Positions 6,140 to 36,355 of a stretch of DNA of 64,000 nucleotides are shown piece by piece. How positions within the stretch are numbered: position 1 is the first letter of the stretch; each line of letters opens with the position of its first letter. The stretch spans positions 961-64,960 of the forward strand of contig JAIMBG010000001.1 in assembly GCA_023511555.1 (NCBI GenBank), written 5' to 3'. The notes under the pieces were generated by a model. That model saw only the letters and a list, made by a program, of their open reading frames with translations. It made no database searches and was not told the origin of the DNA. The DNA comes from Acetobacteraceae bacterium. Lineage in GTDB: Bacteria > Bacillota > Sulfobacillia > JAIMBG01. The translations under genes were made by a program, and so were the position numbers.

Positions 6140-6144
6140 AGAGG

Positions 6145-7044: not shown

Positions 7045-7052
7045 CGGTCGCG

Positions 7053-8084: not shown

Positions 8085-8102
8085 GGGGGCGATTGGTCGC
8101 GA

Positions 8103-9021: not shown

Positions 9022-9071
9022 GCGTCCGTGGGGCGGGTGATCCAGTTCCCCATGGTGAGGAGGGGTGAGGA

Positions 9072-20959: not shown

Positions 20960-21985
20960 TCACCTGATCAGCAGGGCGTCCCCGAAGTCGTAGAACCGGT
21001 AGCCGGCGTCCCGCGCCCGCCGGTAGCACTCCTTCATGAGGTCCACGCCGATGAGCGCCGCGGTGACCAGAAGGCCCGTGCTCCGGGGCGGATGGAGGTT
21101 GGTGACCAGCCCGGTGATGCATCGCACCCGGTACCCGGGGTACATGTAGAGGTCGGACATGCCCTTCATGGGGCGGACGCGGCCGGTCCCGTCCGCCGCG
21201 GTCTCCAGGGTGCGGGCGACGGTGGTCCCGATGGCTACCACCCGCTTCCCCGCGGCCCGGGCGCGGTTCACCGCTTCGGCGGTGTCGGGCGGCACCTCTA
21301 TTTCTTCGCCGTGCATCACGTGGTCCTCGACGTGCTCCACGGTTATCGGGGCTGAGCCCAGACCGATGTGGAGCGTGATGTATTTCATGTCGATGCCGGC
21401 CTGGGCCAGGCTGTCGATGACCCGTGGCGTGAAGTGCAGGCCGGCGGTGGGCGGCAGCCCCGACCCCGGCTCCCGGGCGTAGACCGTGTCGTAGAGCGCC
21501 CGCTCGCGGACCTTTTGGTCGGCGAACACCGGCAGGGCCAGCTCCCCGATCTTCTCCACCGCGGCGTAGAAGTCGCCCTCGCAGGTGAAGCGGATTATCC
21601 AGTGCGTCATGGGGCCGATCTGCTCCGGCTCCAGCAGCTCCCCGGTTACGCCCTCACCGAAGAACAGCCGCTCTCCGGGGCCCAGCCCCCTCGCCGGTCG
21701 TACCTGGCAGCACCACACGTCGGGCGCCCGCCGCGAGACCAGCACCACCAGGAGCTCGCGACCGTCGGCCCGCCGCCCCGGCAGACGGCAGGGGATGACC
21801 TGGCTGTCGTTGGCGACGAGCAGGTCTCCCGGGTCCAGGAAGCCCGCGATATCGCGAAAGATCGCGTGCTCTATCGCACCCGTGGCCCTGGTGAACACCA
21901 TGAGGCGGCACTGGTCCCGGTCGGCCAGGGGCACCCGGCCGATCTGCTCCACTGGCACGTCGATGCTGAGCTCGTCGACCCTCAT
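20960..21985 (-). CDS. queA: S-adenosylmethionine:tRNA ribosyltransferase-isomerase QueA (paralog 1)
   Basis: Collinear with E. coli QueA as I recall it (MRVDELSIDVP…YDTVYAREPGSGLPPTAGLHFT…VAIGTTVARTLE…YRFYDFGDALLI). ATG 21985 preferred; the track's 21994 is a GTG. Confidence 0.8.
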   Translation of the reverse strand: MRVDELSIDVPVEQIGRVPLADRDQCRLMVFTRATGAIEHAIFRDIAGFLDPGDLLVANDSQVIPCRLPGRRADGRELLVVLVSRRAPDVWCCQVRPARGLGPGERLFFGEGVTGELLEPEQIGPMTHWIIRFTCEGDFYAAVEKIGELALPVFADQKVRERALYDTVYAREPGSGLPPTAGLHFTPRVIDSLAQAGIDMKYITLHIGLGSAPITVEHVEDHVMHGEEIEVPPDTAEAVNRARAAGKRVVAIGTTVARTLETAADGTGRVRPMKGMSDLYMYPGYRVRCITGLVTNLHPPRSTGLLVTAALIGVDLMKECYRRARDAGYRFYDFGDALLIR

Positions 21986-22043
21986 CGCTCTCACTACCTC
22001 TATTAAGGGGTGGCTCTATGCGAAGCGGGGGCTAACTATCAGG

Positions 22044-22073
22044 CCCCGCACGCGCCTTGCGGCGCGCGCGGGG
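22044..22073 (-). other. Very stable GC hairpin (13-bp stem, GCAA loop) after the small ORF; candidate stabilizer/attenuator, no U-tract
   Basis: Minus-strand CCCCGCGCGCGCC-GCAA-GGCGCGTGCGGGG, 13 pairs with one G·U, starting 10 nt after the TAG of the 25-codon ORF. Confidence 0.35.
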
Positions 22074-22082
22074 AGCCGCGGC

Positions 22083-22160
22083 CTACATCAGCTTGCACGA
22101 CAAGGTAAGCTCCTTGAAGAGCTCCACCTTGGCGCACAGAGGCTTGACATAAGCCTTCAA
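22083..22160 (-). CDS. Candidate 25-aa precursor peptide, PqqA-like (MKAYVKPLCAKVELFKELTLSCKLM), TTG start
   Basis: TTG start 6 nt after a strong AAGGGAGGTG SD and 19 nt after the PqqD-like stop. Not in the ORF track (below its length cutoff). Resembles PqqA in the KP…E-x-T-L motif; a stable hairpin follows. Confidence 0.3.
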   Translation of the reverse strand: MKAYVKPLCAKVELFKELTLSCKLM

Positions 22161-22179
22161 CGGGTTCACCTCCCTTCTT

Positions 22180-22470
22180 TTAGGCGGGCGTCCCGCCCGA
22201 GAGCTGGACAAGGCCCCTCTCGAGCAGGACGCCTATGAGCTCTTTCACGTCTGCCTCGGCCGTCGCCGGGTCGCACTCAAACCCGGCGCAGATCTCCCTG
22301 ACCATGTCGGCGACAGTCGACTTGCTGTCTGCCAGCTCCCAGACCACGGCCGCCGTCGCGTTAAGCTGGTAGTAAGACTCGTTCTCCGGGTCCATGAGCA
22401 CAATGTCGTCGCCCACGTTGGTCCAGCGGATCCTCTCCGTCCGGGTCAGCACCGTGTTGGAATCAATCAT
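22180..22470 (-). CDS. PqqD-family protein (RiPP recognition element-like peptide chaperone)
   Basis: 96 aa; …WTNVGDDIVLMDPENESYYQLNATAAVVWELADSKSTVADMVREICAGFECDPATAEADVKELIGVLLERGLV is the PqqD/RRE pattern. GGAGGGAG RBS. Confidence 0.75.
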   Translation of the reverse strand: MIDSNTVLTRTERIRWTNVGDDIVLMDPENESYYQLNATAAVVWELADSKSTVADMVREICAGFECDPATAEADVKELIGVLLERGLVQLSGGTPA

Positions 22471-22489
22471 GCCCCGCCTCTCCCTCCGG

Positions 22490-23566
22490 TCAGATCATTA
22501 GGGTGGTGTCCCCAAACTCGTAAAAGCGGTACCTCTGCGCCACCGCCTCCCGGTAGGCCGAAAGCACGAGTTCCCGCCCGGCGAACGCCGCTACCAGCAG
22601 GAGCCGGGTGCTGCGGGGCTGGTGGAAGTTGCTGATGATGGCGTCGCAGGCCTTAAACCTAAAGCCCGGGTAGATGAACAGCCCCGCCCAGCCCGACCCG
22701 GCCCGCACTACGCCGTCGTCCCCCGTTGCTGTCTCCAGGGTGCGCACGCAGGTGGTGCCGCAGGCGAACACGCGGCCGCCCGCGGCGCGCCGGCGATTTA
22801 TCTCGGCCGCGGCCTGGGGAGACACCTCGTACCACTCGGGCAGCATGGTGTGCTGGGTATAGTCCTCCATCTCGATGGGCAGCGAGCTCACCCCCACGTG
22901 GAGCGTGAGCCGGGTTATGGCCGTGCCCTGGGAGGCGATCCTGTCCAGCAGTTCGGGGGTGAAGTGCCGGCCGGCGGCGGGAAGCTCCGTGGACCCCGGG
23001 TTTTGGGCGTACACCGTCTGGTACTGCTCGAAGTCCCTGGGCTCCCGGATATACATAGAGTAGGACGGGCGGCCCAGCTCGCTCAGCACCGGCCACAGCA
23101 GGTCAGGATCGCTGAACTCCACCCGCCAGGCCCGCGCCCCCACCTGCTCCACCAGCCGCCCGGAAAGCCTCTTGCCGAAGGTGAGGCGGAGCCCCTGGCG
23201 GGCCGCCCGCGGCGGCCGCACCAGGCAGTGCCAGGTGCCGTCGGGGCAGCGGGAGAAGATGTTGAGCGTAACCCGGGCCCCGTCGTCCCGGGTCCCGGGG
23301 AGGAGGCTGTTTATCACCCGCGAGTCGTTTATGACCAAGACGTCGCCGGGGAGGAGGTACTCCACGATGTCGCAGAAGCGGCGGTGCTCCAGGACGCCCC
23401 TTCGGCGGTGGATGACCAAAAGGCGCGACTGGTCGCGGCTTAACCCCTGGTTTTCCACCGGCTCCCGGGCTACGAGCTCCATGGGCAGGTCGAACTCGTA
23501 CTCTGAGAGCCTGTGAAGCCTGGCTTCCTGCGGGATGACGCTGGGGGTCGTGGCTTCACTGTTCAT
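22490..23566 (-). CDS. QueA-family ribosyltransferase-isomerase paralog 2, possibly recruited to a secondary pathway
   Basis: Full-length QueA homolog (…EFDLPMELVAREP…LLVINDSRVI…YQTVYAQNPGSTELPAAGRHFT…FACGTTCVRTLE…YRFYEFGDTTLMI). Overlaps the upstream kinase stop; lies 19 nt from PqqD. Confidence 0.75.
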   Translation of the reverse strand: MNSEATTPSVIPQEARLHRLSEYEFDLPMELVAREPVENQGLSRDQSRLLVIHRRRGVLEHRRFCDIVEYLLPGDVLVINDSRVINSLLPGTRDDGARVTLNIFSRCPDGTWHCLVRPPRAARQGLRLTFGKRLSGRLVEQVGARAWRVEFSDPDLLWPVLSELGRPSYSMYIREPRDFEQYQTVYAQNPGSTELPAAGRHFTPELLDRIASQGTAITRLTLHVGVSSLPIEMEDYTQHTMLPEWYEVSPQAAAEINRRRAAGGRVFACGTTCVRTLETATGDDGVVRAGSGWAGLFIYPGFRFKACDAIISNFHQPRSTRLLLVAAFAGRELVLSAYREAVAQRYRFYEFGDTTLMI

Positions 23567-24545
23567 GGGGGCTGCCCACCTCCCAGCTCAGGATCTCGTT
23601 GACTCGCCTTCCGGCGGCCGTGATGTGGAGCGAGGCGCGGTACTTGTCCGGGGTGAGGTGAAAGCAGGCTATCATCTGCCGGATCTCCTCCAGAAGGGCG
23701 TAGATAGCGCTGCGGCGGGGCCAGGACGCCGTCGCCGGCCGTCGTCTGCGGAAGGCCCGCTCCACCAGGGGATAAAAGTCGCCCCAGTTGGTGAACCCCG
23801 CCAGCTCTACGTCGGCATCGGCGAACTGCGCGTGCTCCAGGTCTATGACCCCCACGATGCTGGTCTGGCCGGGAGGTCCGTCGACCATGACGTTGGACAT
23901 GTTGGCCAGGTTGCCGTGGACGAAGGCCGGGCGGATCTCGGGGTCGTCGATGGCCCGGGCCGCGATCTCCTTGAGCTTGAGCAGCCTGTCCGCCGGTACC
24001 CCGGCCACAAAGCCCAGGTAGTTCAGGCGCAGAAACCCCCGCTCCCGGAAGAACGATGCCCAGGTGGGGAAGCCCTGCAGCAGCCCGCGATGATCGATCC
24101 AGCCGAACAGCGGCGCCTCGATCTCGGCCAGGTCGGCCAGCAGCTCCCCCATCTTCCCGGCCAGGCGCTCCCGCTCCGCGACGGTAAGCGTGTCCCAGGC
24201 CAGGTGGAGGGGCGTGCCCGGCATCTTCTCCATGAGCACGTATGCCCTGCCGGCGGCGCCCGCCTCCCCCGAGGCCCCATGGACCCGGGGCACCCGCACC
24301 CGGGACATCCCCAGCACCAGGCGGCTGAGGTGGGGTTCCTTGAGGAGCTGCTGTTGGTTCTCCAGCCGGGCATTCTCCGGCGCCACCTTCATGATGTAGG
24401 TGCCGGCGGTGCACTCCACCTCGTAGACCGTGTTGCAGCGGCCGCCCCCCAGCTCCTTCACCCCGGTGAGCTCACCGCCGAGGTGCCGTTCCACCGCCCG
24501 CCGGATAACGTCCCGGTCCACTTCGGCCTTCAGCGTGGACTCCAC
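23556..24545 (-). CDS. Phosphotransferase-family kinase (APH/choline-kinase-like fold)
   Basis: GTG 24545 after an AGGAGG RBS. N-lobe …ELGGGRCNTVYEVECTAGTYIMKV…, Brenner-like HGNLANMSNVMV, DxxxxN-type …VIDLEHAQFAD… Maximal ORF to 24770 is an antisense extension. Confidence 0.7.
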   Translation of the reverse strand: MESTLKAEVDRDVIRRAVERHLGGELTGVKELGGGRCNTVYEVECTAGTYIMKVAPENARLENQQQLLKEPHLSRLVLGMSRVRVPRVHGASGEAGAAGRAYVLMEKMPGTPLHLAWDTLTVAERERLAGKMGELLADLAEIEAPLFGWIDHRGLLQGFPTWASFFRERGFLRLNYLGFVAGVPADRLLKLKEIAARAIDDPEIRPAFVHGNLANMSNVMVDGPPGQTSIVGVIDLEHAQFADADVELAGFTNWGDFYPLVERAFRRRRPATASWPRRSAIYALLEEIRQMIACFHLTPDKYRASLHITAAGRRVNEILSWEVGSPHEQ

Positions 24546-24577: not shown

Positions 24578-25996
24578 CTAGGAGGCCAACACCAGTTGCG
24601 GAGCCGCCTCTCTCCACGCCCTGTCCCGGTCGAATCGCACATATAGCCCCTGGGGGTCGAAGTCCGCCGGCGGATGGCCCCCGTGGCAGAAGAAGAGGTA
24701 GAGGAAAAGGTCGGCGGTGAACCTCTGCAGCCTGTCGGGATAGAGCCACCTCAGCGGGTGGCTGTCCCACTCCACCCCCGGGAGCGCGGCGACGGCCCCG
24801 GCCACCGCCGCCCTGAGCCCCGCAGCGGCGTCGGGCAGGCCCACCTTGTTGCGGGATGCCACCGCCTCACCCAGGCCTCCGGGGAGCAGGGCCCGCACCA
24901 GGTCACGCAGGGGCCGCTTGGTGACCCCGCCGCGCACCAGTTCCCCGGGCGTCTGAGCCAGGGCGTAGTCGATCACCTGGGGGTCGAGGTAGGGAAAGGC
25001 CACCGGGGTGGGAGCCGCCTCCACGCGGGCGGTCCGCAGGTGAAGGTGGGGCAGCCGCTCGGTGAGGTTCATCCAGTAGAGCGCCCGGAACAGATCGGCG
25101 TTGCCCAGCCGCTCCCACTCCCCGATGCGGGCAGCCACCTCAGAGGCGCCTGGCACCTCGCCCCCCCGCGCCCGTAATAGGGCGTCCAGCCGCCGTCTCA
25201 GCCCCTCCACGTACAGCCGGGGGTGGGGGTAGATCCACCAGTACCCCGCGAAGAGTTCGTCAGCACCCTCGCCGCACAGCACCACCGGGACGGTGCCACG
25301 GACGGCGCCGCAGGCGGCCGCCACGCTGCCGGTCAGTATGCGGGGCGAGGCTATGAGCCGCACTACCTGGCACCACCTGTCCAGCGGGGAGCCGGCCGGC
25401 TCCACCATGACCTCCAGGCCCTGGATCACCAAATGCTGGCACACCCGGCGGGCCATGCCGCGGTCGGCCCGGCTGGACTCATCGCCGGATATGGCAGTGA
25501 CCGCCACCAGCGGCACGCTTGCCACCCGCGCCGCCCGGCGGGCCAGGACGGCCAAAAGCGTGGAGTCGACCCCGCCGGACAGCAGCACCGCTCCCCCGCC
25601 GTAGATTGCGGCCGAGACGGCGTTGTACAGCCTCGCCTCCAGGCCGGGTCCGTCGCCCCTTTCCGGAGCTGGGGGCGGGGGCGGCACTGACACTTCGACC
25701 TCCAGCCGCCCCCAGGGCGCAAACCGCGCCCTCACTGAGCCCCCCGGAGGCACCTGGCGCACGGCGCGGAAGACGGTGCGGGTCCCAGTGGGAAAGCCGA
25801 GGACGGCCTCCTCCACCAGCGCCGCGGAGTCCAGCCTGCGGTCCACGGCGGGATCAGCCAGGATCGCCGCCATCTCGTCGGCCCAGAGCAGGGTGCGGCC
25901 GTCACAGGTCAGAGCATAGTACAGCGCGTCCTGCCCGAACCAGCTTCGGGTCAAGACCAGCTCGCCGTCGCCCGAAAAGCGGCCCGCCCGGTTCAT
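24578..25996 (-). CDS. Asparagine synthetase (AsnB) C-terminal-domain homolog lacking the glutaminase domain; candidate ATP-dependent amide/lactam synthetase
   Basis: PP-loop LLSGGVDSTLLAVL and AsnB motif CGEGADELFAGYWW. N-terminus MNRAGRFSG… (ATG 25996) has no Cys2 nucleophile and only ~110 aa precede the PP-loop. Maximal ORF to 26419 is an antisense artefact. Confidence 0.7.
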   Translation of the reverse strand: MNRAGRFSGDGELVLTRSWFGQDALYYALTCDGRTLLWADEMAAILADPAVDRRLDSAALVEEAVLGFPTGTRTVFRAVRQVPPGGSVRARFAPWGRLEVEVSVPPPPPAPERGDGPGLEARLYNAVSAAIYGGGAVLLSGGVDSTLLAVLARRAARVASVPLVAVTAISGDESSRADRGMARRVCQHLVIQGLEVMVEPAGSPLDRWCQVVRLIASPRILTGSVAAACGAVRGTVPVVLCGEGADELFAGYWWIYPHPRLYVEGLRRRLDALLRARGGEVPGASEVAARIGEWERLGNADLFRALYWMNLTERLPHLHLRTARVEAAPTPVAFPYLDPQVIDYALAQTPGELVRGGVTKRPLRDLVRALLPGGLGEAVASRNKVGLPDAAAGLRAAVAGAVAALPGVEWDSHPLRWLYPDRLQRFTADLFLYLFFCHGGHPPADFDPQGLYVRFDRDRAWREAAPQLVLAS

Positions 25997-26013
25997 TCCC
26001 TTGCCCCCCTGTC

Positions 26014-27555
26014 TCACTCCTGTCCGAGTTGGCCGGCCGCCGCGCCCGGGGCCGGGCCCCTGGCCCCCACCAGGGCCAGCCGGTCCACCTTCCCCGAAGG
26101 GGTGCGGGGGAGCGCGGGCAGGAACTCCACGTCGCGCGGAACCATGTGCTCCGGCAGCACCCTGCGGCAGTGCTCGAACAGCTCCGCCTGCTCCAGGGGC
26201 CGCCGGGCCACCACGAAGACCCGCACCACCTCGCCCCAGACCCGGTTCCTGTCCCACACCACGGCGGCCTCGGCCACATCGGGGTGGGCCAGGAGCGCCT
26301 TCTCGATCGTCTCTCCCGAGACCTGAACCCCGGCGAACTTCACCATGTTTCGCGTCCGCCCGATGAGCTCCAGGCGGCCCTGCTCGTCGAACCGCCCCAG
26401 GTCCCCGGCGTGGGCCCACTCGCCCCGGTAGTGCTCCGCCGTGTCCTGCGGGCGCCGGTAGTAGCCGCTGGAGAGCCGGCCGTCAGGTGTGCGCAGGGAG
26501 TGCACCCAGACCTCACCCACGCCGGGGGCAAGGCCCTCGGCGTCAGCGCGCGCCGGCAGGATGCGGATCTCGCACCCGGGAAGCGGCCGGCCGACGAACC
26601 TCCAGTTCGACTCAGGGTCGTCGTCCCAGTTGAGGCAGGCCTGGCTGTACTCCCCGGAGCCGTAGTTGTTGTGGAGGTGGTGGCCGAAGCGGGAGAAGAA
26701 CTCGTCCCCCATCTTGGGGAAGAACGACGCCCCCACCATGCAGAGCCGCGTCCTCGGCCAGGTCATGCGTCCCGGGGCGGCGTCCATCAGCGCCCGGTAC
26801 ATGAACCCGATCCCCACCAGGTAGGTGAGTGTGCCGGAGGCGCACGCCCGGAGCACCTCGCGGGGGTTGAACCGGTCCTGCAGCAGCACCGTGGCCTGCG
26901 ACATCAGCGCCGAGAGGAACACCTGGTCCCGGCCGAAGCCGTTGAGGAAGGGGAGAGCCCCCAGTATCACGTCGTCGCGGGTGCAGTAGGTCGACTCGGC
27001 GGAGTGAACCACCCTGGCCCGCAACTGGTCGCTGGTGATCATGATCAGCTTGGGGATGCCGGTGCTGCCCGAGGTGGGACAGAGGACGGCCGTCCCCGGC
27101 ACCGGCGGTTCGGGATCGGGGGCCCGCGCCTCGCGCTTCGCGGGCGCAGCAGCCCAGAGGCTCTCCCCGGACTCGTCCACCATCAGCATGCGGGTGGGCA
27201 GGGGGGCCAGGATGTCCTGAACCAGCCCGGCGTGCTCCGGGGTGGTGACCAGGTAGCGCGCCCCGCTCTCCTCTATCAGCGCCGCCATAACGTGGCGGTG
27301 GTAGCTGGGGCTGAGCGGGAGCATCACCGCCCGGATGCGGCTCAGCGCGCAGAACGCCACGGGGAACGCCGGGGTGTTGCTCAAGAGCAGCACCACGTGG
27401 TCGCCAGGGCTCACGCCCTGATGCCTGAAGTCCAGAAGACGGGCCTCGGCCCGGCGGAGGAACTCGGCGTAGGTGATTTCCGTCCCCCGCCACAGGTAGG
27501 CCGGGTGGCCGGGGCGCTCGGCGGCCGCCTTCTCCAGCCAGTCAAACGGCACCAC
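26014..27555 (-). CDS. ANL-superfamily adenylating enzyme (acyl/aryl-CoA ligase or carrier-protein-loading adenylation enzyme)
   Basis: A3-like TSGSTGIPK, A5-like NNYGSGE, A7/A8-like YRGEWAHAGDLGRFDEQGRLELIGRTRNMVKFAGVQV. GTG 27555 sits 7 nt after the ACP stop, with a GGGTGAGGGAG RBS. Confidence 0.75.
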   Translation of the reverse strand: MVPFDWLEKAAAERPGHPAYLWRGTEITYAEFLRRAEARLLDFRHQGVSPGDHVVLLLSNTPAFPVAFCALSRIRAVMLPLSPSYHRHVMAALIEESGARYLVTTPEHAGLVQDILAPLPTRMLMVDESGESLWAAAPAKREARAPDPEPPVPGTAVLCPTSGSTGIPKLIMITSDQLRARVVHSAESTYCTRDDVILGALPFLNGFGRDQVFLSALMSQATVLLQDRFNPREVLRACASGTLTYLVGIGFMYRALMDAAPGRMTWPRTRLCMVGASFFPKMGDEFFSRFGHHLHNNYGSGEYSQACLNWDDDPESNWRFVGRPLPGCEIRILPARADAEGLAPGVGEVWVHSLRTPDGRLSSGYYRRPQDTAEHYRGEWAHAGDLGRFDEQGRLELIGRTRNMVKFAGVQVSGETIEKALLAHPDVAEAAVVWDRNRVWGEVVRVFVVARRPLEQAELFEHCRRVLPEHMVPRDVEFLPALPRTPSGKVDRLALVGARGPAPGAAAGQLGQE

Positions 27556-27562
27556 GGCTCCC

Positions 27563-27805
27563 TCACCCCTCTTCGGCCGGCCGGGAGGCACGCACCAGGT
27601 CCGCCCATGCCCTGGCGGACCGGGGCCGCCTGCGGCGAAGCTCATCCTCCTCGATCAGCACTCCGAAACGGCGCTCCAGCGAAACCACAAGCTGGATGAG
27701 GTCCATTGAGGCCAGCTCCAGCTCGCGATCGGGGTCGTCCCGGCCGTACGCCAGGTGAGGCATGGCCTCAAGCTCCGCCAAAACGCCTTCCAGGACCTGA
27801 TCCAA
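27563..27805 (-). CDS. Acyl/peptidyl carrier protein (phosphopantetheine attachment site)
   Basis: 80 aa; …ELASMDLIQLVVSLERRFGV… matches the carrier-protein helix-II Ser motif. TTG start after GGAGGGA, directly downstream of the SBP stop. Confidence 0.65.
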   Translation of the reverse strand: MDQVLEGVLAELEAMPHLAYGRDDPDRELELASMDLIQLVVSLERRFGVLIEEDELRRRRPRSARAWADLVRASRPAEEG

Positions 27806-27808
27806 GTC

Positions 27809-29386
27809 TCATCCCTCCATGCCTGACCGGGCCGGGGCCCGGCCCCATCTCCACCGGTGAGCGTTCCAGGTGACCGGCGTCTGCGACGACCCGCCTGGCC
27901 GGAAGTTCAGCAGCCCCACCCGGTGGGCCGAGACCTCGATGCGGTGGTACAGCGGGAGCGAAGGGAGGTCCCGGGCGAACAGCTCCTGCTGTCGGTGCAG
28001 GAGCTCCCACCGCCGCCGCTCGTCGAACTCCTCCTCGGCCCGGGCCAAAAGCTCGTCCACCTCCGGGTTCCGCCAGCCGGCGAAGTTGTGGCCGGAGTAC
28101 CCGTTTTCCGGGCCGGGCACCTGCTGGGAGTGCCAGGCGCCGCGCCCGATGGTGTCGGGGTGCATGAGCCAGGCGTAGAGCAGCAGATCGAACTCCCGCC
28201 GGCGCGCAAACTCCCCAAACACCCGGCGGGGCTCGTCCTCTCGGACCTCCACGGCGGCGCCGAACGCCCTCCACTGCTCCTTTAGCTCCGCCGCCGCCCT
28301 TATCCTCGCCGGATCCCCGGCGGTGGTGGTGATGGTGAACGAAAGCGGCTTCCCGTCTCCGTCCGCCCAGGTCCCGTCCCGGAACTCGAACCCGCAGCCC
28401 TTAAGCAGCTCGGCCGCGCGGCGGGCGTCGCCGCCGGGAAGGCGCTGGGCCTTGTACCCGCGGTGCCTTTCCGGAAGCCAGGAATCGGCGAGCCGGCCTT
28501 TGCCCCCGGTCGCCGCCGCCACCACCCGGGAGCGGTCCACGGCCCAGGCGAGGGCGTGCCTTACCTCGCGCCGGCCCAGGTGGGGGTGGTCGAGGTTGAA
28601 GTCGATGCGTTCCACGGCCAGAGACGGCGTGAAGTGGACGCACACCCGCCCCCGGCCCGCCTCGGCCAGCCGGGCGGCCTGGCCCAGGGTAAGGTTGTTG
28701 GTGGCCATTACGTCAAGGTCGCCCCGGAGCAGCGCCGCCGCCATCTCCTCCGGGTCGGGGATGAACCGGAACGACAGCCCGTCCAGGGGCGGCCGTCCCT
28801 CGCAGAAGTCGGGCACGGCGGAAAGGTCTATGCGGTCCTTTGGCCTCCACTCCACGAAGCGGAAGGGGCCGGTGGTGAGCGGCCGCTTGCCGAACTCCAG
28901 CAGGTGGAATCCGGCCGGGTCCTTGAGGTACGCCGGCTCGAGCACGTGCCGGGGGAGCATCAGGTAGTAGTGATTGGCCGTCGCCAGCCGGCGCTTCCAG
29001 GTGACCACCAGGGTATACGGGTCGGGGCACTGCATGTCCTCGATCTGGGGGTCGTACCAGCGCGAGTCTATCTGCACCCTGGGGTCCATCCTCAGCCGCC
29101 AGGTCCAGACTGCGTCCTGGGTGGTGAGGGGCACCCCGTCGTGCCAGCGGTAGCCGCGCTTCCAGTGGTAGGTGATGCGCATGCCGCCGCCGGGCAGGAA
29201 CTCCCACCCCCGCCCTGGGGTGGGGATGCGCCGGAGCACCCGGGGGTGGGCCCGGCCGCGGTCATCGTAGTGCAGCGGCCGGGTGGTCATGGCCCCCAGG
29301 ATGTCCGCGGCCGAGGCCATGGCCTGCATACCGGGGAACAGGCTGTCCGGTTCCTGGCTGAGCCCTATCCTGGCCAGCCCGCCCAT
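27809..29386 (-). CDS. Solute-binding protein family 5 (DppA/OppA-like) paralog without a signal peptide
   Basis: SBP_bac_5 architecture throughout. N-terminus MGGLARIGLSQEPDSLFPG… has no hydrophobic signal or lipobox, and the upstream gene leaves no room for one. Confidence 0.75.
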   Translation of the reverse strand: MGGLARIGLSQEPDSLFPGMQAMASAADILGAMTTRPLHYDDRGRAHPRVLRRIPTPGRGWEFLPGGGMRITYHWKRGYRWHDGVPLTTQDAVWTWRLRMDPRVQIDSRWYDPQIEDMQCPDPYTLVVTWKRRLATANHYYLMLPRHVLEPAYLKDPAGFHLLEFGKRPLTTGPFRFVEWRPKDRIDLSAVPDFCEGRPPLDGLSFRFIPDPEEMAAALLRGDLDVMATNNLTLGQAARLAEAGRGRVCVHFTPSLAVERIDFNLDHPHLGRREVRHALAWAVDRSRVVAAATGGKGRLADSWLPERHRGYKAQRLPGGDARRAAELLKGCGFEFRDGTWADGDGKPLSFTITTTAGDPARIRAAAELKEQWRAFGAAVEVREDEPRRVFGEFARRREFDLLLYAWLMHPDTIGRGAWHSQQVPGPENGYSGHNFAGWRNPEVDELLARAEEEFDERRRWELLHRQQELFARDLPSLPLYHRIEVSAHRVGLLNFRPGGSSQTPVTWNAHRWRWGRAPARSGMEG

Positions 29387-29407
29387 GTCTTCAGCCCTCC
29401 CGTGCCC

Positions 29408-31042
29408 TCAGCTCCCCCACCGCCAGGTGTGCGCGTTCCAGGGGAGGTAGGTCCCCGAGAGCCCCACCGGCCTGACCCCAAGCAGGCTGCGCTTTGAGGT
29501 CTGGAGGTGGATGCGGAAGTAAAGGGGGAGGGAGGGGAGGTCGGCGGCGAACTGCTCCTGCTGCCGGTGGAACAGCTCGATCCGCTTCGCGGTGTCAAGC
29601 TCCCGCAGGACCGCGGCGATGAGGCGGTCGTTCTCCGCGCTGCGCCAGCCGCAGAAGTTCTGGCCGGTGTAGTTGTTATCCGGGGACGGTATCTGGCTGG
29701 AGTGCCACAGCCCGAAGCCCGGGGCGGTGGGGCTCATCACCCACGACAGCATGACCAGTTGGAACTGCCTTTTGCGCAGCCGGTCGGCGATAAGCACCTG
29801 GGCCGGCAGCTCCTCCAGCTTCAGCTCGATGCCGGCCCGGGCCAGGTCCTCTGTCATGGCGGCCGCGATTCGCCGCCGGAGCTGGTTTCCGGCGGTGGTG
29901 GACAGCGTGAGGGTGAGCCTCTCGCCGCCGGCGTTCCGGCGGATGCCGTCGGGGCCGCGGCGCCAGCCGGCCTGGTCCAGGAGCTGCGAAGCGCGGTCGG
30001 GCTCGTACTCGTACCGCGGAACGCCGGGGTGGAAAGCGTAGTATCTTTCGCCCAGCCAGGTGTGGGCCACGTTCACCCGGCCCCGGAACTCGCGCTTGAC
30101 CGCGGCCTCGCGGTTGAACGCATGGAGCAGCGCCCGCCGCACCCGGACGTCGGAGAGCACCGGGTCGTCGAGGTTGACGTCGATGTGCTCCCACTCGATG
30201 GCCGGGCTGTAGTGGGTGGCGACAAAGTCGCCCGCCGCCTCCTCTATCTCCGCCATGTCCTCCAGGGAGAAGTTGTTGAGCTCGGTGCAGTCCACCTCGC
30301 CCGCGATCTGGGCCCTCTTCAGCGAGGCGGCGTCGGGGTAGAAGCGGTAGACCAGCCGCTTTATCGTGGCCGGACCCTCCACGAAGTCTTCCACCGCCCG
30401 GACGCTCAGCTCCTCCCCGCGCCTCCAGTAGTCGAAGCGGTAGGGGCCGTTGCCCATCGGGTGGTCCCAGAGGGGGACCTGGTCGAGCCTGTCCCTTCCC
30501 TTGAGCAGCGGCTCATAGACCCTGCGGGGTACGAACGACGCCCCATATGCGGCGCCGAAGAACAGGTCGGCGTGAGGCAGCCGCTCTTTCCAGTGGACGT
30601 CGAACTCCAGGTCGTTCTTCACCACGATGCTTTCTATCTTGGCCTCTATCCACCGGGTAACGATGGGCAGCCGGGGGTCGAGGCAGAACTGCCAGCCGTA
30701 GAGCACGTCGTCGGCCGTCACCGGGGTGCCGTCGTGCCACTTGTAGCCGGGACGGAGGCGGTAGTGCATTATCATCCGGTCTCCGTGGACCTCCCAGGAG
30801 CCGTCCTCCAGGGAGGGGAGCTTCTCGGCCACGCGGGCGTATGGCTTCCAGTCGTCGTTCCACTCGATGAGCGCGCAGAACATGGTGTTCATCACCGCTC
30901 CGGCGGCCACCGTGCTCTGCCCCTTTATGGCCATCCCGTCGGGCTCCTGCGCCATCCCGATGACCACCGTCTTTTCGTCTATCACCGGGCCCTTTATGGG
31001 CATCCGCCTCATCCCTCCCTCGGTTCTTCGGACCACACCCAC
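29408..31042 (-). CDS. Solute-binding protein family 5 paralog without a signal peptide
   Basis: Paralog of the neighbouring genes (…IGMAQEPDGMAIKG…). No signal peptide; overlaps the upstream paralog's 3' end. Confidence 0.75.
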   Translation of the reverse strand: MGVVRRTEGGMRRMPIKGPVIDEKTVVIGMAQEPDGMAIKGQSTVAAGAVMNTMFCALIEWNDDWKPYARVAEKLPSLEDGSWEVHGDRMIMHYRLRPGYKWHDGTPVTADDVLYGWQFCLDPRLPIVTRWIEAKIESIVVKNDLEFDVHWKERLPHADLFFGAAYGASFVPRRVYEPLLKGRDRLDQVPLWDHPMGNGPYRFDYWRRGEELSVRAVEDFVEGPATIKRLVYRFYPDAASLKRAQIAGEVDCTELNNFSLEDMAEIEEAAGDFVATHYSPAIEWEHIDVNLDDPVLSDVRVRRALLHAFNREAAVKREFRGRVNVAHTWLGERYYAFHPGVPRYEYEPDRASQLLDQAGWRRGPDGIRRNAGGERLTLTLSTTAGNQLRRRIAAAMTEDLARAGIELKLEELPAQVLIADRLRKRQFQLVMLSWVMSPTAPGFGLWHSSQIPSPDNNYTGQNFCGWRSAENDRLIAAVLRELDTAKRIELFHRQQEQFAADLPSLPLYFRIHLQTSKRSLLGVRPVGLSGTYLPWNAHTWRWGS

Positions 31043-32595
31043 TCCTGCGCGTTCCAGGTGACCGGCCCCACCGACATCCCGGTGGGACGGATGCCTTTCA
31101 GACCGCGGCGGTGGGCCACCACCTCCGCCCTCATGAGCAGCGGAAGGCAGGGCAGGTCGCGGGCGAAGACCGCCTGCTGCTCCCGCATCACCGCCGCCCG
31201 GCGGTCGTCGTCCAGCTCTCGCAGCCCCCGGGACAGCAGGGCGTCGTTTTCCGCGCTCCGCCAGCCGGGGTAGTTGCGGCCCTGCCAGGCGTTCTGGGGG
31301 CTGGGGACCTGAGACGAGTGCCAGGCCCCGAACCCCATGGCGTGAAGGTGCATCACCCAGGAGTACATGGCCAGGTGCTCGAACCGCCGCCGCGGCAGAA
31401 GCTCGGTAAACAGTTCCCGGGCCGGGACCCAGCCGGTCTCGCAGGCCACGCCTATCTCCCGCCAGGCCGAGACCAGCCCCTCGGCCAGCCGCTCCCTGAG
31501 CTTGTCGCCCGCGGTGGTAAGCAGCCGCAGCGGGCTCTTGCCGGCGGGGATGAGCCGTCCGGAGCGCTCCTCCCAGCCCGCCTCGAGCAGCAGCGACCGC
31601 GCCCTCCCGGGGTCGCGCCCCAGAGCCCTGAGCACCGGGTCGTGGTCGGGATGCCCGGTGGGCAGCCAGCTCGTCGCCACCTGGAGCCGGCCCGCCGACG
31701 CCTGCCGCACCAGCTCCTCCCGGTCCACCGCCAGGGCCAGGCCCAGCCGGGCCCGGGGGTCGGAGAGCGCCGGGGAGTCGCAGTTGAAGTCCAGCCTTTC
31801 CACGATGAGCGCGGGCTTGTAAACGAATCTGAACTCCGGAAAGGCGTCCTCCAGGTCCAGAACCTCGTCAAGCGACATCGACGCGCCCGAGACCACGTCG
31901 ACCTCGCCCCGTCGCCAGCCCGCGACGAGCTCCTCCGGCCCCGGGTAGAAGCGGAAGACTATCCGCTCCGCCGCCCGGCCCCGGGCGGGGGGCGGGGGCG
32001 GCGCCATGCGGACCACCTCGATGAACTCCCCTGGAACCCAGCGGGAGAACCGGAACGGACCCATGCCCACCGGGCTCCGGGCGAAGGGAAGCCGCGGGAG
32101 CGAGGTGGGGTCCCTGTCGAAAGCCTCCGCCAGGAGGTGGCGGGGCAGCGCCCGGTGGCACATGTTGGCGTTGGGGGTCATCTCACTCCAGTCGACCACC
32201 AGGGTGAGGGGGTCCGGGCAGTGCATCCCGGCCACCTTGACGTCGTCGGACTTCGTCACCACGGACTTTACGGCGGGGTGCGTCCACATCCGCCATGTCC
32301 ACTCGACGTCGTAGGCCTGGAGCGGATGCCCGTCGTGCCACCGCACCCCCGGCCGGATGCGGTAGGTGAGCCGCATGCGGCCGTCGGGGAACACCTCCCA
32401 GTCGCCGCCCGATACCGAAGGGATGCGCTCCACCCAGGTGGGGAAAGGCCGCCAGTCGTCGCCGTACTGCACCGGCCGGGTGTAGAGCGTCGCCAGCACC
32501 AGCCCCGAGGCGTAAAGCGGCGTAAACGCCAGCAGCAGGTTGTCCGGCTCCTGCGTCACCCCGATGACCACCGTGCCCTCGTCACCGCGACCCAT
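31009..32595 (-). CDS. Solute-binding protein family 5 paralog without a signal peptide
   Basis: MGRGDEGTVVIGVTQEPDNLLLAF…; starts 22 nt after the 5'-nucleotidase stop; no signal peptide. Confidence 0.75.
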   Translation of the reverse strand: MGRGDEGTVVIGVTQEPDNLLLAFTPLYASGLVLATLYTRPVQYGDDWRPFPTWVERIPSVSGGDWEVFPDGRMRLTYRIRPGVRWHDGHPLQAYDVEWTWRMWTHPAVKSVVTKSDDVKVAGMHCPDPLTLVVDWSEMTPNANMCHRALPRHLLAEAFDRDPTSLPRLPFARSPVGMGPFRFSRWVPGEFIEVVRMAPPPPPARGRAAERIVFRFYPGPEELVAGWRRGEVDVVSGASMSLDEVLDLEDAFPEFRFVYKPALIVERLDFNCDSPALSDPRARLGLALAVDREELVRQASAGRLQVATSWLPTGHPDHDPVLRALGRDPGRARSLLLEAGWEERSGRLIPAGKSPLRLLTTAGDKLRERLAEGLVSAWREIGVACETGWVPARELFTELLPRRRFEHLAMYSWVMHLHAMGFGAWHSSQVPSPQNAWQGRNYPGWRSAENDALLSRGLRELDDDRRAAVMREQQAVFARDLPCLPLLMRAEVVAHRRGLKGIRPTGMSVGPVTWNAQEWVWSEEPREG

Positions 32596-32617: not shown

Positions 32618-34108
32618 TCACAGGAGCGTGTGGCCGTCCAGGAAGTCGCTGTCCTGCTCCCCCGCAGACCAGGGCGGGGGCGGCGGCTGGCTCACCAGCT
32701 CCACCGGCGGGGCCGGGGCTCCCGGCCCGGACCTGAGGTACTCCTTGAGACAGGTGACGGGGTGGATGCCCGTGTCCTGCCCGTCTGGGGGCATCCGGAA
32801 GCCCGCCCCGCCGCGGGCCATGTACTCCTGCACCGCCACGGCGTACCGGCCGTCCTCGTCCGGCGGGCCCTCGAACTCCAGCCCCACCACGCGCTGCCCC
32901 GGGGGCCGCCGGGGGTCGACCTTGACCTTGGCCCCCGCCACCTGCAGCAGCGTTCCCCCCAGGGCGTCAAGCTGCTTCAGGCCGTGCTCCAGACAGGCCA
33001 GGACTTCCTCGCGTGTGAGGCGGAACCGCACTACCCGGGAGCGGTAGGGAATCACGTCCACCAGGTCCTGGTAGCGGATGGGGCCCTTGAGGCCGGCCGA
33101 GAACACCCCGCCCACGAGCTGCAGCGCCACGTCGCACTTGCAGTGCCAGCGAACCGCGGCCGCCACCAGGCCCCCCAGGGCGGCCTGGCCCCGGCGCAGC
33201 CGCACCAGGTTGCCGTCGGTGTAGGGCAAGAATGCTACCGGCTGGTCCAGCTCCTCCCGGAAGGGCCGGAGCGCCGCCTCGACCGCCGGGTCGGGCGGTA
33301 TGGCCAGGGAGACCTCGATGAGCTGGGCCTGGGCCCTGAGCCAGCGCCCGGGCAGGAGCTCCGCCTCCAGTCGGCCGAGCCAGCGCCCCTGCCTTCCGGC
33401 CTTGACCACGATGGGCCCCGGCCCCTCGTACTCGGCCACCGGGCTGCTGCCGCCAGGGGGGATGAGCCCGGCGAACCCCGCCACATGACCCCCCACGATC
33501 ACGTCGGCATGGGGAAACTCCGCCGCCAGGCGGCAGTCGTCCTCCGTGGTCTGGTGAGTGATCACCACCACCCAATCGGGTGCCTCGGCGTTGCCGCCGC
33601 CCACCAGCCGCTGGAGCGCCGGGACCGGGGGCAGCCATCTGAGCTGGGCCCGGGCTGGGGGGTTGAACTTGCTGAACACGTCCTCCGAGACCACCGAGGC
33701 TATCAGCACTGACCCGGCCGGGGTCTTAAGCAGGGCCGTCTCGGGCAGCACCGGCCCCCCCTCCGCCAGGTGCACGTTGCTGGACACGATGGGGAAGCTG
33801 GCCAGGGAGGCTAGCTCCCGGATGTAGGCCGGCCCCAGGTCGAAGTCGTGGTTGCCGCAGCCCATGGCGTCGTAACCGGCGGCGCTCATGCCCACGATGT
33901 CGGCACGCCCGCCGAACGCCGCAGATGCCGTGGCCCCGTAAAGCACGTCGCCGCTGTCGAGCAGCAGCACCGCCCCCCCGCCCTCCCGCTCTCGCCGTAC
34001 CAGCGCGGCCCGGCGCTCCAGGCCCCCGACCGGCCGCCCGTCCGGGGCGGAAAACGGCCAGACGGAGGCGTGGTGCTCGCAGGAGTGGAAGATGACCAGC
34101 CGGCTCAC
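32618..34108 (-). CDS. Bifunctional metallophosphatase / 5'-nucleotidase (UshA/YfkN family), cytoplasmic
   Basis: Calcineurin-like metallophosphatase motifs (…LLLDSGD…, GNHDFD) and a 5'-nucleotidase C-terminal substrate-binding domain. No signal peptide. Confidence 0.8.
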   Translation of the reverse strand: MSRLVIFHSCEHHASVWPFSAPDGRPVGGLERRAALVRREREGGGAVLLLDSGDVLYGATASAAFGGRADIVGMSAAGYDAMGCGNHDFDLGPAYIRELASLASFPIVSSNVHLAEGGPVLPETALLKTPAGSVLIASVVSEDVFSKFNPPARAQLRWLPPVPALQRLVGGGNAEAPDWVVVITHQTTEDDCRLAAEFPHADVIVGGHVAGFAGLIPPGGSSPVAEYEGPGPIVVKAGRQGRWLGRLEAELLPGRWLRAQAQLIEVSLAIPPDPAVEAALRPFREELDQPVAFLPYTDGNLVRLRRGQAALGGLVAAAVRWHCKCDVALQLVGGVFSAGLKGPIRYQDLVDVIPYRSRVVRFRLTREEVLACLEHGLKQLDALGGTLLQVAGAKVKVDPRRPPGQRVVGLEFEGPPDEDGRYAVAVQEYMARGGAGFRMPPDGQDTGIHPVTCLKEYLRSGPGAPAPPVELVSQPPPPPWSAGEQDSDFLDGHTLL

Positions 34109-35346
34109 CCGCCGACCCCCTCCTTCCGGATGCCGTGCTCCCGCACCTCACGGCGCAGCGTCATCGACGCCGCCAGGGCGGAGAGGATGGGGCCGCAGAC
34201 CGCAAACACCGCGGCTGGGCCGAGGATCTCGGTGAGCTCGCCCACGGCCAGGAAACCCAGGGGCAGGATGGACATCCCTAGGGCCATGCCGGCGCCGCTC
34301 ACCCGGCCCACGAACTCCGCAGCCACGTCGGACTGAAGCGAGGTCTGCCAGATGACCCCGAACACCGTGCTGCCCGCGCCCACCACCAGGCCGGCGAGCA
34401 GCACGCTCCACAGCGCTGGGCACAGGCCCGCGACCAGCAGGCTCAGCCCCTGGGCGGCGACTGCCCAGTACACCACCAGGCCGGGGCGCAGCAGGCGCAG
34501 GCCGGAGCCGAAGGCCACCGCCATGCCGACAGACCCCGCCGCCTGGACGCTGTAGGCCAGGCCCAGGCCGACGAGACCGATGCTGGCGTGGGCGCGGGCC
34601 AGAAGCGGCAGGGAGACCAGCCAGGGGCCGGCGGCCAGCACGTTGCCCACGGCGGTGAAGACAGAGGCGCCCAAGAGGAACCGGTGCCGCAGCAGTTCCC
34701 TCCAGCCGGGGCCAATCTTCCTCCACAGCGGCTCCGACGGCCCGCGCGCCTGGCGGGCGGCGACCCTGAGCAGCATCAGGGTGGCCACCGACACCATGAA
34801 GGTGGCGGCATCGAAAAGGACCGGGGCGCTGAGCCCCCCCAGGGCGGCCAGGCCGGTCGCCAGCGTGGGGCCGATCACCATGGCTGTTTGACGGGTGGCC
34901 GCCAGGAGCGAATTGGTGGGGGGCAGGATCTCCCGGGGGGCAATGTCGGCGATGAGAGCCATGGAGGCGGGCTGAAACAGCGACTCCAGCAGGCCGAACA
35001 GCGCCATGGTCAGGTACAGCATCCACATCTGATGCCGGCCCAAAAGGACCACGAGGCCCAGCGCCGCCACCAGGGCGGCGCGGCCTGCATCGGCCCAGAT
35101 CATTACCCTGCGCCCGCTGACGCGGTCGGCGAGGGCCCCGCCGAACATAAGCATAACGGCCTGGGGCAGGGAAGCGGCCACCAGCACCAGCGACACCTGA
35201 AGGCCGGAGTCGGTGAGCGTGCAGGCGATCCATGCCAGGGCCACCTGGTATATGCGGTCGCCAAGCAAAGACAGAGACTGGCCGGACCAGTACAGCCGGA
35301 CTCGGGCGTTCCTCAGCGCCTCCAGCCAGCTTGCTCCCCTAGCCAC
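34105..35346 (-). CDS. MFS transporter (efflux-type, EntS/YbdA-like)
   Basis: 12-TM MFS pattern. GTG 35346 overlaps the GNAT stop (GTGGCTAG); maximal ORF to 35451. Confidence 0.75.
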   Translation of the reverse strand: MARGASWLEALRNARVRLYWSGQSLSLLGDRIYQVALAWIACTLTDSGLQVSLVLVAASLPQAVMLMFGGALADRVSGRRVMIWADAGRAALVAALGLVVLLGRHQMWMLYLTMALFGLLESLFQPASMALIADIAPREILPPTNSLLAATRQTAMVIGPTLATGLAALGGLSAPVLFDAATFMVSVATLMLLRVAARQARGPSEPLWRKIGPGWRELLRHRFLLGASVFTAVGNVLAAGPWLVSLPLLARAHASIGLVGLGLAYSVQAAGSVGMAVAFGSGLRLLRPGLVVYWAVAAQGLSLLVAGLCPALWSVLLAGLVVGAGSTVFGVIWQTSLQSDVAAEFVGRVSGAGMALGMSILPLGFLAVGELTEILGPAAVFAVCGPILSALAASMTLRREVREHGIRKEGVGG

Positions 35347-35929
35347 AGCCTCCCCCTCCCCGCGCCTCTCCGCGCCGCCCGGCATACTCCCCGCGCAGCA
35401 GGCCGAGTCGGATGGTCTTCCAGAAGCGGCCGTCCACGTATACGTCGTCACGGCTCTCGCCCTCGACCTGGAACCCCGCCGACTGGAACAGCCTTAGCGA
35501 TCGCCGGTTGAACTCGAAGGTGGTCGCCTGGACCTTGTGGGCCGCCTGGCCGTCGAAGAGGAGGGCCAGAAGGAGGTCGAGCGCTTCACGGCCGTACCCC
35601 TTGCCCCAGAGATCGGGCCGGCCGATGAGCAGGCCGACGTCGTACACCCCGAACTCCCTCACCCTGGTCCAGCGCGCCCACCCGATGAGCTCCTGGGGCA
35701 GCAGCACCACGCCGTAGGCGCGGAAGTCGGGGGAAAAGGCCCGTTCCCGGTAGCGCTGCTCTAAGAAGGCGAGGGGTATCTGGTCGACTGAGGCGTCAAA
35801 CATCTTGAGCACCTCGGGGTCTGAAAGCCACGCCCAGTAAGAGCGGTTGTCCTCGGGCTCCCAGGCCCTGAGTGCCACGCGGCTGCCGGCTATCACTCCC
35901 CCCACCTCCATGCGGCCGCGGCCGTGCAA
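35339..35929 (-). CDS. GNAT-family N-acetyltransferase (RimJ/RimL-like)
   Basis: GNAT fold motifs (…VGLLIGRPDLWGKGYGREALDLLL…FQSAGF…). Confidence 0.8.
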   Translation of the reverse strand: MHGRGRMEVGGVIAGSRVALRAWEPEDNRSYWAWLSDPEVLKMFDASVDQIPLAFLEQRYRERAFSPDFRAYGVVLLPQELIGWARWTRVREFGVYDVGLLIGRPDLWGKGYGREALDLLLALLFDGQAAHKVQATTFEFNRRSLRLFQSAGFQVEGESRDDVYVDGRFWKTIRLGLLRGEYAGRRGEARGGGGCG

Positions 35930-36355
35930 TCTGGCGGTCCACCTGCCCTGGTGGCGCCCTGAGGTTCAATGGGTGATAGCCCCGGGATTTGACATAATAT
36001 TCAGGTTCTGCTTAAGAACATTCGGGGCAAGACGGTTAAGTCCTGCTATACCTTGCGAGTCAAAAAAGATTTTACTAGCCTCCCTGACCACCCCGGCGAG
36101 ACCGCCACTCACCAGGGAATAGACAGGCCGCACCCCTGAGAGCCGCGGCCCGCACTCTTCAAAGCTGCAATTCTCTTCTTTCCACAATATCGGTGCCCCC
36201 GGGCGGCCGTGAGCGAACCGGGTGGGCGCAGGGTCATGCCGCATGGCCGCGAGCGACGTCGTGGCGTCCCCAGGCCGCCCGCACCGCTGCTTACTCGCGG
36301 CGCCAGCCTTGACCCCCCGCCCTGCCGGTGGCCGGGCGCGGCCTCCCCCGGGGGC

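Follow-up and report, generated by a model that had tools for sequence, protein, structure and literature searches.

Signal-less SBP_bac_5 proteins in a RiPP-like gene cluster: probable intracellular descendants of oligopeptide receptors

The automatic label for binding proteins of family 5 (SBP_bac_5) is 'peptide ABC transporter substrate-binding protein'; cluster mining takes them as importers. Three genes of this family stand in tandem in a 64-kb stretch of bacterial DNA (contig JAIMBG010000001.1; the whole stretch is called the window here), in the middle of an operon that appears to modify a small peptide, and neither export signals nor an ABC importer accompany them. What would such receptors do there? 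A sequence-only reading of the window had proposed that they are cytoplasmic and serve in binding, scaffolding or catalysis instead of import. The best explanation of the data gathered here is that these substrate-binding proteins (SBPs), named SBP_A, SBP_B and SBP_C, descend from Opp/App-type oligopeptide receptors, are intact and intracellular, and no longer have a role in an ABC importer. The three genes are as follows.

31009..32595, minus strand: SBP_C, signal-less SBP_bac_5 paralogue of 528 aa, which begins MGRGDEGTVVIGVTQEPD (PF00496, E 1.1e-50).
29408..31012, minus strand: SBP_B, signal-less SBP_bac_5 paralogue of 531-534 aa, from ATG 31003 or ATG 31012 (PF00496, E 1.8e-66).
27809..29386, minus strand: SBP_A, signal-less SBP_bac_5 paralogue of 525 aa, which begins MGGLARIGLSQEPD (PF00496, E 6.7e-58).

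The matches to PF00496 score 173-225 bits against a gathering cut-off of 32.4 and, together with the open reading frames (ORFs), confirm the three tandem paralogues that the sequence-only reading had placed at 27809-32595 on the minus strand. All three ORFs are full length and free of internal stops in a window with a G+C content of about 72%. Pairwise alignment, which the same reading had proposed as a check, gives mutual identities of 37-43% with about 90 invariant columns; the genes are therefore old paralogues and not recent copies. No orthology to a named receptor emerged, all three proteins lying far under every NCBIfam equivalog cut-off (the best, Opp4A, gives 101-135 bits against 650). 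The junctions are tight: the ATG of SBP_C lies 22 nt past the stop of a phosphoesterase gene and has the ribosome-binding site GGGAGGGGAG, that of SBP_B overlaps the stop of SBP_C (ATGA), and that of SBP_A follows the SBP_B stop by 21 nt, with a GGAGG-type ribosome-binding site at each of the three starts. The maximal ORF of SBP_B begins further upstream, at GTG 31042 (29408-31042), but its true start is most likely ATG 31003, as called in the database (P0001), or ATG 31012.

No Sec or Tat signal and no lipobox was found in SBP_A, SBP_B or SBP_C or in their three orthologues, as judged from sequence reading, hydrophobicity and a structure model. The longest ORFs begin MGRGDEG.., MGVV../MRRMPIKG.. 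and MGGLARIG.., and the first strand of the fold is reached within 6-25 residues. In the AlphaFold model of SBP_B, disorder is limited to residues 1-9 and the first fold strand occupies residues 15-20. As a positive control, the binding protein of the LIV system in the same window displays a classic lipoprotein signal, MKRWIALAMVLAVLAALWGC. Longer N-termini from alternative starts were considered and rejected, since the ORFs are already maximal and the DNA upstream is taken by the preceding genes; the earlier claim that signal peptides are missing and that there is no room for them upstream thus stands, and it is matched in the orthologues. A signal peptide arising from an alternative start codon, which had been named as possible counter-evidence, was not found, and the shift in the SBP_B start leaves the argument unchanged. 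Furthermore, the orthologous triad in an independent assembly (locus L001, whose organism was recovered from three samples) starts in the same signal-less manner, which excludes an artefact of gene calling or assembly; an assembly artefact was likewise rejected on finding the same starts in L001, L004 and L005, from the three samples. Each protein of the triad contains 4-7 cysteines, whereas the exported clade closest to it averages 0.4, and this elevated content is weakly consistent with a cytoplasmic location. SBP_A, SBP_B and SBP_C are presumably cytoplasmic.

Within the window the triad also lacks a transporter to serve. A Pfam scan, confined to the GC3-called genes, found no Opp/Dpp permease in the window, and a tblastn search of all 64 kb with OppB, OppC, OppD and OppF of a genuine operon likewise found no permease, so that a hidden Opp permease in unannotated gaps is ruled out. 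The ATPase probe matched the LIV ATPases alone, and weakly. By Pfam the sole ABC system of the window is of LIV/HAAT type (9845-14488); it was rejected as a partner of the SBPs because it is a transporter of another family and already possesses a lipoprotein receptor. Pfam and tblastn over the 64 kb therefore agree with the earlier statement that no permease or ATPase lies nearby and that the LIV transporter is the only ABC system. Additionally, no Opp/Dpp permease or ATPase was found at the orthologous loci L001 and L004.

The ancestry of the proteins is probably that of transport receptors. They share with the canonical Opp, App and Dpp cluster-C receptors the Pfam family, the three-domain fold and the core motifs, at 27-45% identity. 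The next-best homologues after the orthologues, at 45% identity or less and about 550 aa long, come from metagenome-assembled genomes (MAGs) of Armatimonadota and Bacillota and show a signal peptide followed by the fold start DTVVIGMAQEPD. Canonical receptors carry Sec, Tat or lipoprotein signals, and among the best 120 homologues an export signal is absent in the window protein and its orthologue only, the others having Sec or Tat signals or being fragments. In the one exported relative whose genomic context was read (P0003, Armatimonadota, locus L003), the operon is canonical, with an SBP, two permeases, a further SBP and two ATPases; the triad, in contrast, has neither signal nor such neighbours. 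When 1.84 billion representatives were searched with a profile, the triad (942, 941 and 761 bits) stood apart, and the score then fell to 533 bits.

A structure model was made for SBP_B of the triad, and it shows a complete cluster-C fold (AlphaFold2; pLDDT 93.2, pTM 0.90). Its best Foldseek matches are 2d5w, 1xoc and NikZ, with TM values of up to 0.84, and its top structural neighbours are all transporter receptors and include no enzyme. Of the solved structures, the closest are 2d5w, a Thermus oligopeptide-binding protein holding a pentapeptide, and 1xoc, Bacillus subtilis AppA holding a nonapeptide. Across the six proteins of the two triads, 91 of the 92 invariant columns are common to the nearest exported relatives, and at the one that differs Phe stands in place of Trp, not a change of catalytic type. 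The receptor core has therefore been kept, with no shared gain of catalytic-type residues, and the fold and core residues predicted to be retained would fit retained ligand binding. In neighbour-joining trees, the only type computed and one open to long-branch attraction, SBP_A is the sister of SBP_C in 200/200 bootstraps, and monophyly of the triad is weak (24/200 and 1/200); SBP_A, SBP_C, an actinomycete family and the metagenomic protein P0293 form one group in 79% of bootstraps, and with SBP_B included in 34%.

Are the genes at work? SBP_B is identical to the database protein P0001, and its nearest relative, P0002, is 78% identical and the only close one. The P0002 operon is fully syntenic with the window and was recovered from three samples (L001, L004 and L005), in which the triad DNA is 100% identical and thus represents one organism; public data accordingly hold two independent versions of the SBP-containing cluster. 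Identities to the L001 orthologues are 75% for SBP_C, 78% for SBP_B and 73% for SBP_A, and the ratios of non-synonymous to synonymous substitution (dN/dS) are 0.26, 0.22 and 0.27, at a dS of about 0.7. These values lie inside the range of the other operon genes (0.15-0.43). Together with the conserved signal-less starts, they indicate working genes and not relics or assembly errors. Moreover, in 200/200 bootstraps each paralogue of the window forms a pair with the corresponding orthologue, which means that all three SBPs are individually maintained.

The use of signal-less SBP_bac_5 proteins without ABC genes recurs in other lineages, as their sequences and gene neighbourhoods show. A profile search revealed a signal-less family in actinomycetes, with about 27 sequence clusters and members in Asanoa, Nocardiopsis, Actinomadura, Lentzea, Plantactinospora and Jidongwangia. 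Nine of its loci (L011, L012 and L015-L021, two of them from Nocardiopsis rhodophaea) combine PDZ/AHSA1 genes, two or three SBP_bac_5 genes and MFS genes, with two P450s and a methyltransferase in 2/9 (Asanoa and one MAG), and none has OppBCDF within 10 kb. N-termini were read at two loci, Asanoa L011 and Nocardiopsis L012, where all SBP_bac_5 genes (three and two) have signal-less starts. The Asanoa locus (7532-15602) is ordered SBP-P450-SBP-P450 with overlapping junctions, whereas in Nocardiopsis (5276-13359) an MFS gene adjoins every SBP gene directly or with an overlap; Actinomadura L016 has these genes in the same order. A further signal-less protein, P0293, was observed on a short metagenomic contig (L036, 756-5242) between genes for a ketosynthase, a FabA/ApeI-like dehydratase and a cupin. 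Like the triad, the actinomycete family and P0293 lack an export signal and an ABC partner and have enzyme or MFS neighbours, and the actinomycete loci also resemble it in carrying two or three paralogues each, with no ABC partner within 10 kb. They differ in their neighbours, which are PDZ/AHSA1, P450, methyltransferase or ketosynthase and dehydratase genes, with no QueA, PqqD or 25-residue peptide. The actinomycete family is uncharacterised and supplies recurrence but no mechanism.

In the window, the triad sits in mid-operon with junctions of -4 to +22 nt, between the MFS and phosphoesterase genes on one side and the carrier and adenylating genes on the other. Between about 35.9 kb and 14.5 kb the minus-strand genes are closely packed, neighbours being separated by -14 to +97 nt, and they stand in the order GNAT, MFS, phosphoesterase, SBP_C, SBP_B, SBP_A, carrier-like, AMP-binding, Asn-synthase-like, APH and QueA-like 1, followed by PqqD, a 25-aa peptide, QueA-like 2, a 417-aa protein, a 671-aa protein, SDR, GFO/IDH/MocA, AlkZ-like and the LIV genes. 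The features around the triad are listed below.

34105..35352, minus strand: MFS transporter (MFS_1/MFS_3, EntS-like), first gene of a sub-block of MFS, phosphoesterase and three SBPs; L001 orthologue 71%.
32618..34108, minus strand: 5'-nucleotidase/UshA-like metallophosphoesterase (Pfam 5_nucleotid_C and Metallophos), overlapping the MFS gene by 4 nt.
27563..27805, minus strand: carrier-protein-like ORF of 80 aa containing ELASMDLIQLVVSLE, 3 nt past SBP_A, with a weak NCBIfam ACP match; L001 orthologue 76%.
26014..27555, minus strand: AMP-binding (adenylate-forming) enzyme (Pfam AMP-binding and AMP-binding_C), a core gene common to L007 and L037.
24578..26002, minus strand: homologue of Asn-synthase-like ATP-dependent amidotransferases/cyclases (Pfam Asn_synthase), branch-specific, with no counterpart in L007.
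23556..24542, minus strand: APH-family kinase (Pfam APH), orthologue in L001, branch-specific, with no counterpart in L007.
22490..23566, minus strand: QueA-like enzyme 1 (Pfam Queuosine_synth, E 2e-105).
22180..22470, minus strand: PqqD-family protein of the RiPP recognition element type (Pfam PqqD, E 4e-19, above the gathering score).
22083..22160, minus strand: candidate precursor peptide of 25 aa, MKAYVKPLCAKVELFKELTLSCKLM, with a TTG start and a GGGAGG ribosome-binding site; homologues in L001, L007 and L037.
22044..22077, minus strand: GC-rich 13-bp hairpin directly past the peptide gene.
20960..21985, minus strand: QueA-like enzyme 2 (Pfam Queuosine_synth, E 2e-97; dN/dS 0.15).
19700..20953, minus strand: 417-aa protein, a possible metalloprotease with an HETGH (HExxH) motif found by sequence reading; orthologue in L001.
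17629..19644, minus strand: 671-aa protein of unassigned family, with a 28% identical counterpart in L007.
14493..17613, minus strand: SDR, GFO/IDH/MocA oxidoreductase and AlkZ-like DNA glycosylase, with gaps of -4 to +72 nt and the same order in L004 and L005.

A short conserved precursor ORF beside a PqqD-family protein and tailoring enzymes suggests a cluster resembling those for peptides made on ribosomes and modified after translation (RiPPs). Two more specific assignments were rejected. For a lasso peptide, the Asn-synthase-like protein scores far below the cut-offs (52.8 against 300 for NF033561 and 19.7 against 525 for NF033535) and is absent from L007, no transglutaminase-type protein was found, and the 25-residue peptide, by sequence reading, has no plausible lasso core. 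For a PQQ operon, the genes offer no more than a PqqD-type protein and a small peptide; PqqB, PqqC and PqqE are missing from the operon. Both QueA-like paralogues score just over the tRNA-QueA equivalog cut-off; the closest non-orthologous relative of QueA-like 1, however, is in the L007 cluster and adjoins PqqD, not tgt. Neither the 417-aa nor the 671-aa protein gave a Pfam, NCBIfam or PDB sequence match.

Several features of the operon deserve mention in their own right. The UshA-like phosphoesterase is without the usual signal peptide of its family in both cluster versions; its NCBIfam UshA-type matches lie under the cut-off, and by sequence reading its metal motifs are largely intact (GDVLYG, GNHDFD), with Glu replacing the first Asp. 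The hairpin sits in a gap of 97 nt, the operon's longest between genes, and a similar GC-rich inverted repeat follows the peptide gene of L001. Folding of 101 nt of RNA around it gives -48.1 kcal/mol (z = -3.5). Stabilising or attenuating elements are often seen behind precursor genes, and the hairpin may be one of these. The SDR, GFO/IDH/MocA and AlkZ-like genes are tightly linked to the operon and are regarded only as candidate members of the pathway. The AlkZ-like gene (14493-15674, minus strand) shares 4 nt with the oxidoreductase gene before it, and the LIV receptor gene follows after another 4 nt; no counterpart was seen in L007 as far as that locus is visible. AlkZ-family enzymes confer self-resistance against DNA-crosslinking natural products, and the gene hints at a genotoxic product. 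At the other end, GNAT and a second MFS gene (35339-37765, minus strand) lie upstream and are not in the same place in L001, which indicates that the upstream boundary of the cluster differs between versions.

The host deserves a comment as well. The genes spoIIIAA, AB, AC/AD and AE, a hallmark of endospore formers, and a Flp-pilus locus lie on the plus strand (58166-62100, also 2573-8411), and the best homologues of window proteins come from MAGs of Bacillota, Limnochordia and Armatimonadota, whereas the database label is 'Acetobacteraceae bacterium'. The host is probably a high-GC spore-forming lineage of Bacillota, and the label looks wrong.

Related clusters show which parts of the operon can do without the triad. 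Peptides of 25 residues occur at four loci (the window, L001, L007 and L037) and conform to MKxYxKP....[VI][ED]LFKE[LV]TLSCKxx. In 185,579 species genomes a scan for the motif ELFKExTLSCK gave 0 matches, and metagenomes yielded the L001 organism only; the pattern is too strict for L037, which has DLFKE. Besides the peptide, L007 and L037 share with the window the AMP-ligase, a QueA-like enzyme, PqqD and the carrier protein, whose counterpart there has a clearer DSV motif. L007 also has a second QueA-like gene, a protein like that of 671 aa and an MFS gene, and one QueA-like gene is visible in L037 (core coordinates 20960-23566 on the minus strand of the window, 6980-11756 in L007 and 8475-11803 in L037). 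In the visible DNA of these two loci, that of L037 ending just past the carrier gene, there are no SBPs and no Asn-synthase-like, kinase or phosphoesterase genes, and other genes are present instead, for example that of a B12-radical SAM enzyme. The triad thus co-varies with the Asn-synthase-like, kinase and phosphoesterase genes and is a branch-specific accessory and not part of the conserved core, to which the 671-aa protein belongs by virtue of its counterpart in the SBP-less L007. The paired QueA-like/PqqD/25-residue peptide core of these four organisms may represent a new RiPP class. One may speculate that an epoxy-carbocycle derived from S-adenosylmethionine is placed on a peptide amine, such as that of the conserved Lys of TLSCK. 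In the searchable literature we found no paper linking QueA-like enzymes to peptide modification, and did not find the cluster of QueA, PqqD and 25-residue peptide itself.

How might the SBPs contribute to such a pathway? Their genes would lie in the same transcript as those of the peptide-modifying enzymes, and the proteins would probably be translated together with them, in similar amounts. The ligand of each SBP would be the 25-residue peptide, a piece of it or a modified intermediate from late in the pathway, bound in the cleft between the lobes. The bound ligand would stay in the cell and be offered to the Asn-synthase-like enzyme, the kinase, the phosphoesterase and the adenylating enzyme with its carrier protein, after which the product would be handed to the MFS exporter. 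Three conserved paralogues could serve three different ligands or partners, or form a hetero-complex. We give this intracellular binding and retention of a pathway peptide or of late intermediates about an even chance of being right. The case against it has several strands: everything functional that is said of the triad is inferred from context; the SBP-less clusters show that the core chemistry needs no SBPs; with two independent versions of the SBP cluster only, the statistics of co-variation are weak; 6 cysteines are found even in the exported LIV receptor of the window, which weakens the cysteine argument; the view is limited to 64 kb of a MAG, and an opp permease may lie elsewhere; and OppA2, the binding protein of clavulanic-acid synthesis with which the triad is compared below, is no close sequence relative of it.

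Some of this evidence can be turned to the principal competing account, in which the SBPs take no part in biosynthesis but protect the producer, sequestering the finished and possibly toxic product and delivering it to the MFS pump. The tight coupling of MFS, phosphoesterase and SBP genes in one sub-block fits such a role, as do the Nocardiopsis locus L012, where SBP genes abut or overlap MFS genes and the visible enzyme complement is minimal, the dispensability of SBPs in L007 and L037, which keep the core enzymes, and the hint of a genotoxic product given by the AlkZ-like glycosylase in the same gene run. A co-evolving SBP-MFS module was rejected, however, because no similarity could be detected between the window's MFS proteins and those at the actinomycete loci; L007 has an MFS gene without SBPs, the Asanoa SBPs alternate with P450s and not with pumps, and three individually conserved paralogues exceed what simple sequestration would need. 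We know of no case of SBP-assisted MFS efflux, and on balance this account seems unlikely, though it deserves to be kept in mind. Binding-protein folds have also been turned into enzymes, as in MqnA/MqnD, THI5 and PheC (cyclohexadienyl dehydratase), and one or more of the paralogues could act on the peptide as a hydrolase, cyclase or transferase. Three diverged paralogues on long branches, in an operon that has no obvious leader protease besides the HExxH protein, would be in keeping with this. Nevertheless, only 1/92 positions differs (Phe for Trp) in a comparison of the triad-invariant columns, the top structural matches are all receptors and there are no extra domains or insertions, so that an enzymatic role appears improbable. 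The proposal of cytoplasmic binding, scaffolding or catalysis instead of import is supported by the missing signal, the missing ABC partner, the mid-operon position and purifying selection; it is refined in that catalysis is the least favoured of the three roles, 91/92 invariant positions being common with exported receptors.

A continued role in import would require non-classical export, or a distant Opp/Dpp permease, and would serve precursor uptake or re-import of the product. SBP_bac_5 genes in gene clusters normally co-occur with BPD_transp_1 importers (PMC7849407). The 64 kb are only part of the genome, which leaves room for a permease elsewhere. Orphan SBP genes far from permeases are indeed common. 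Yet none of the six proteins has a Sec or Tat signal or a lipobox, whereas the LIV receptor of the same genome has one, and a Gram-positive-type cell would lose an unanchored receptor; the adjoining UshA-like protein is signal-less too, cytoplasmic enzymes flank the SBPs in the operon and the cysteine content is raised. We regard import as quite improbable. The loss of signals and transporter genes resembles, finally, a degrading importer locus, and the triad might be a decaying or misannotated, functionless remnant of an old opp operon. Full-length ORFs, dN/dS of 0.22-0.27, intact ribosome-binding sites, a confident fold prediction and an architecture kept in a version whose proteins are 73-78% identical leave this reading with a very slim chance.

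The closest functional parallel to intracellular retention of pathway intermediates comes from clavulanic-acid synthesis, in which late steps cannot proceed without oppA1 and oppA2; an oppA2 mutant leaks N-acetylglycyl-clavaminic acid, and OppA2 has been proposed to hold this intermediate in a multi-enzyme complex (PMC8788787, PMC7830376). Like the triad, OppA1 and OppA2 of Streptomyces clavuligerus are family-5 proteins encoded more than once in a biosynthetic cluster without a permease of their own. The clavulanic-acid cluster also has an enzyme of the Asn-synthase family. OppA2 is, however, missing from the best 60 of about 100 PDB matches of SBP_B and of the actinomycete profile, so that the likeness is functional only. 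The settings differ as well, OppA1 and OppA2 serving a non-ribosomal small-molecule pathway from two dispersed genes and the triad a putative ribosomal peptide from three tandem ones. Signal-lessness is a statement about the triad, to which OppA1 and OppA2 are likened by their cluster setting. Besides these oppA genes, no direct literature precedent was found for cytoplasmic SBPs or for SBP_bac_5 proteins in gene clusters.

A second parallel lies within the operon itself. The PqqD-like RiPP recognition element is, like the role proposed for the SBPs, a non-catalytic peptide-binding module that presents a ribosomal peptide to tailoring enzymes, but it is a winged helix of about 90 aa, unrelated in fold to a bilobed receptor of about 530 aa, and the operon already has a PqqD protein. 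Should the holding or presenting of pathway peptides be borne out, the SBPs would account for the way in which some tailoring enzymes that have no recognition domain find their substrate. They would also give the role of OppA1 and OppA2 in clavulanic-acid synthesis, long unresolved, a parallel open to testing, and would be natural high-affinity binders for modified peptides. The cluster, with two QueA-like enzymes, PqqD and a 25-residue peptide, is a candidate for new peptide-modification chemistry, and its SBP-containing and SBP-less variants provide a natural comparison. More tentatively, and with considerable doubt, a lineage of family-5 receptors that lost the export signal could form a new class of intracellular peptide-handling subunits, working with tailoring enzymes such as P450s, ATP-dependent ligases and kinases and with MFS exporters in pathways for peptide natural products, here in the service of an undescribed RiPP class with paired QueA-like enzymes. 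They would then be a second, structurally unrelated answer to the task of the recognition element. The triad and the actinomycete family together point to a recurrent use of these proteins without an ABC transporter, which current annotation hides.

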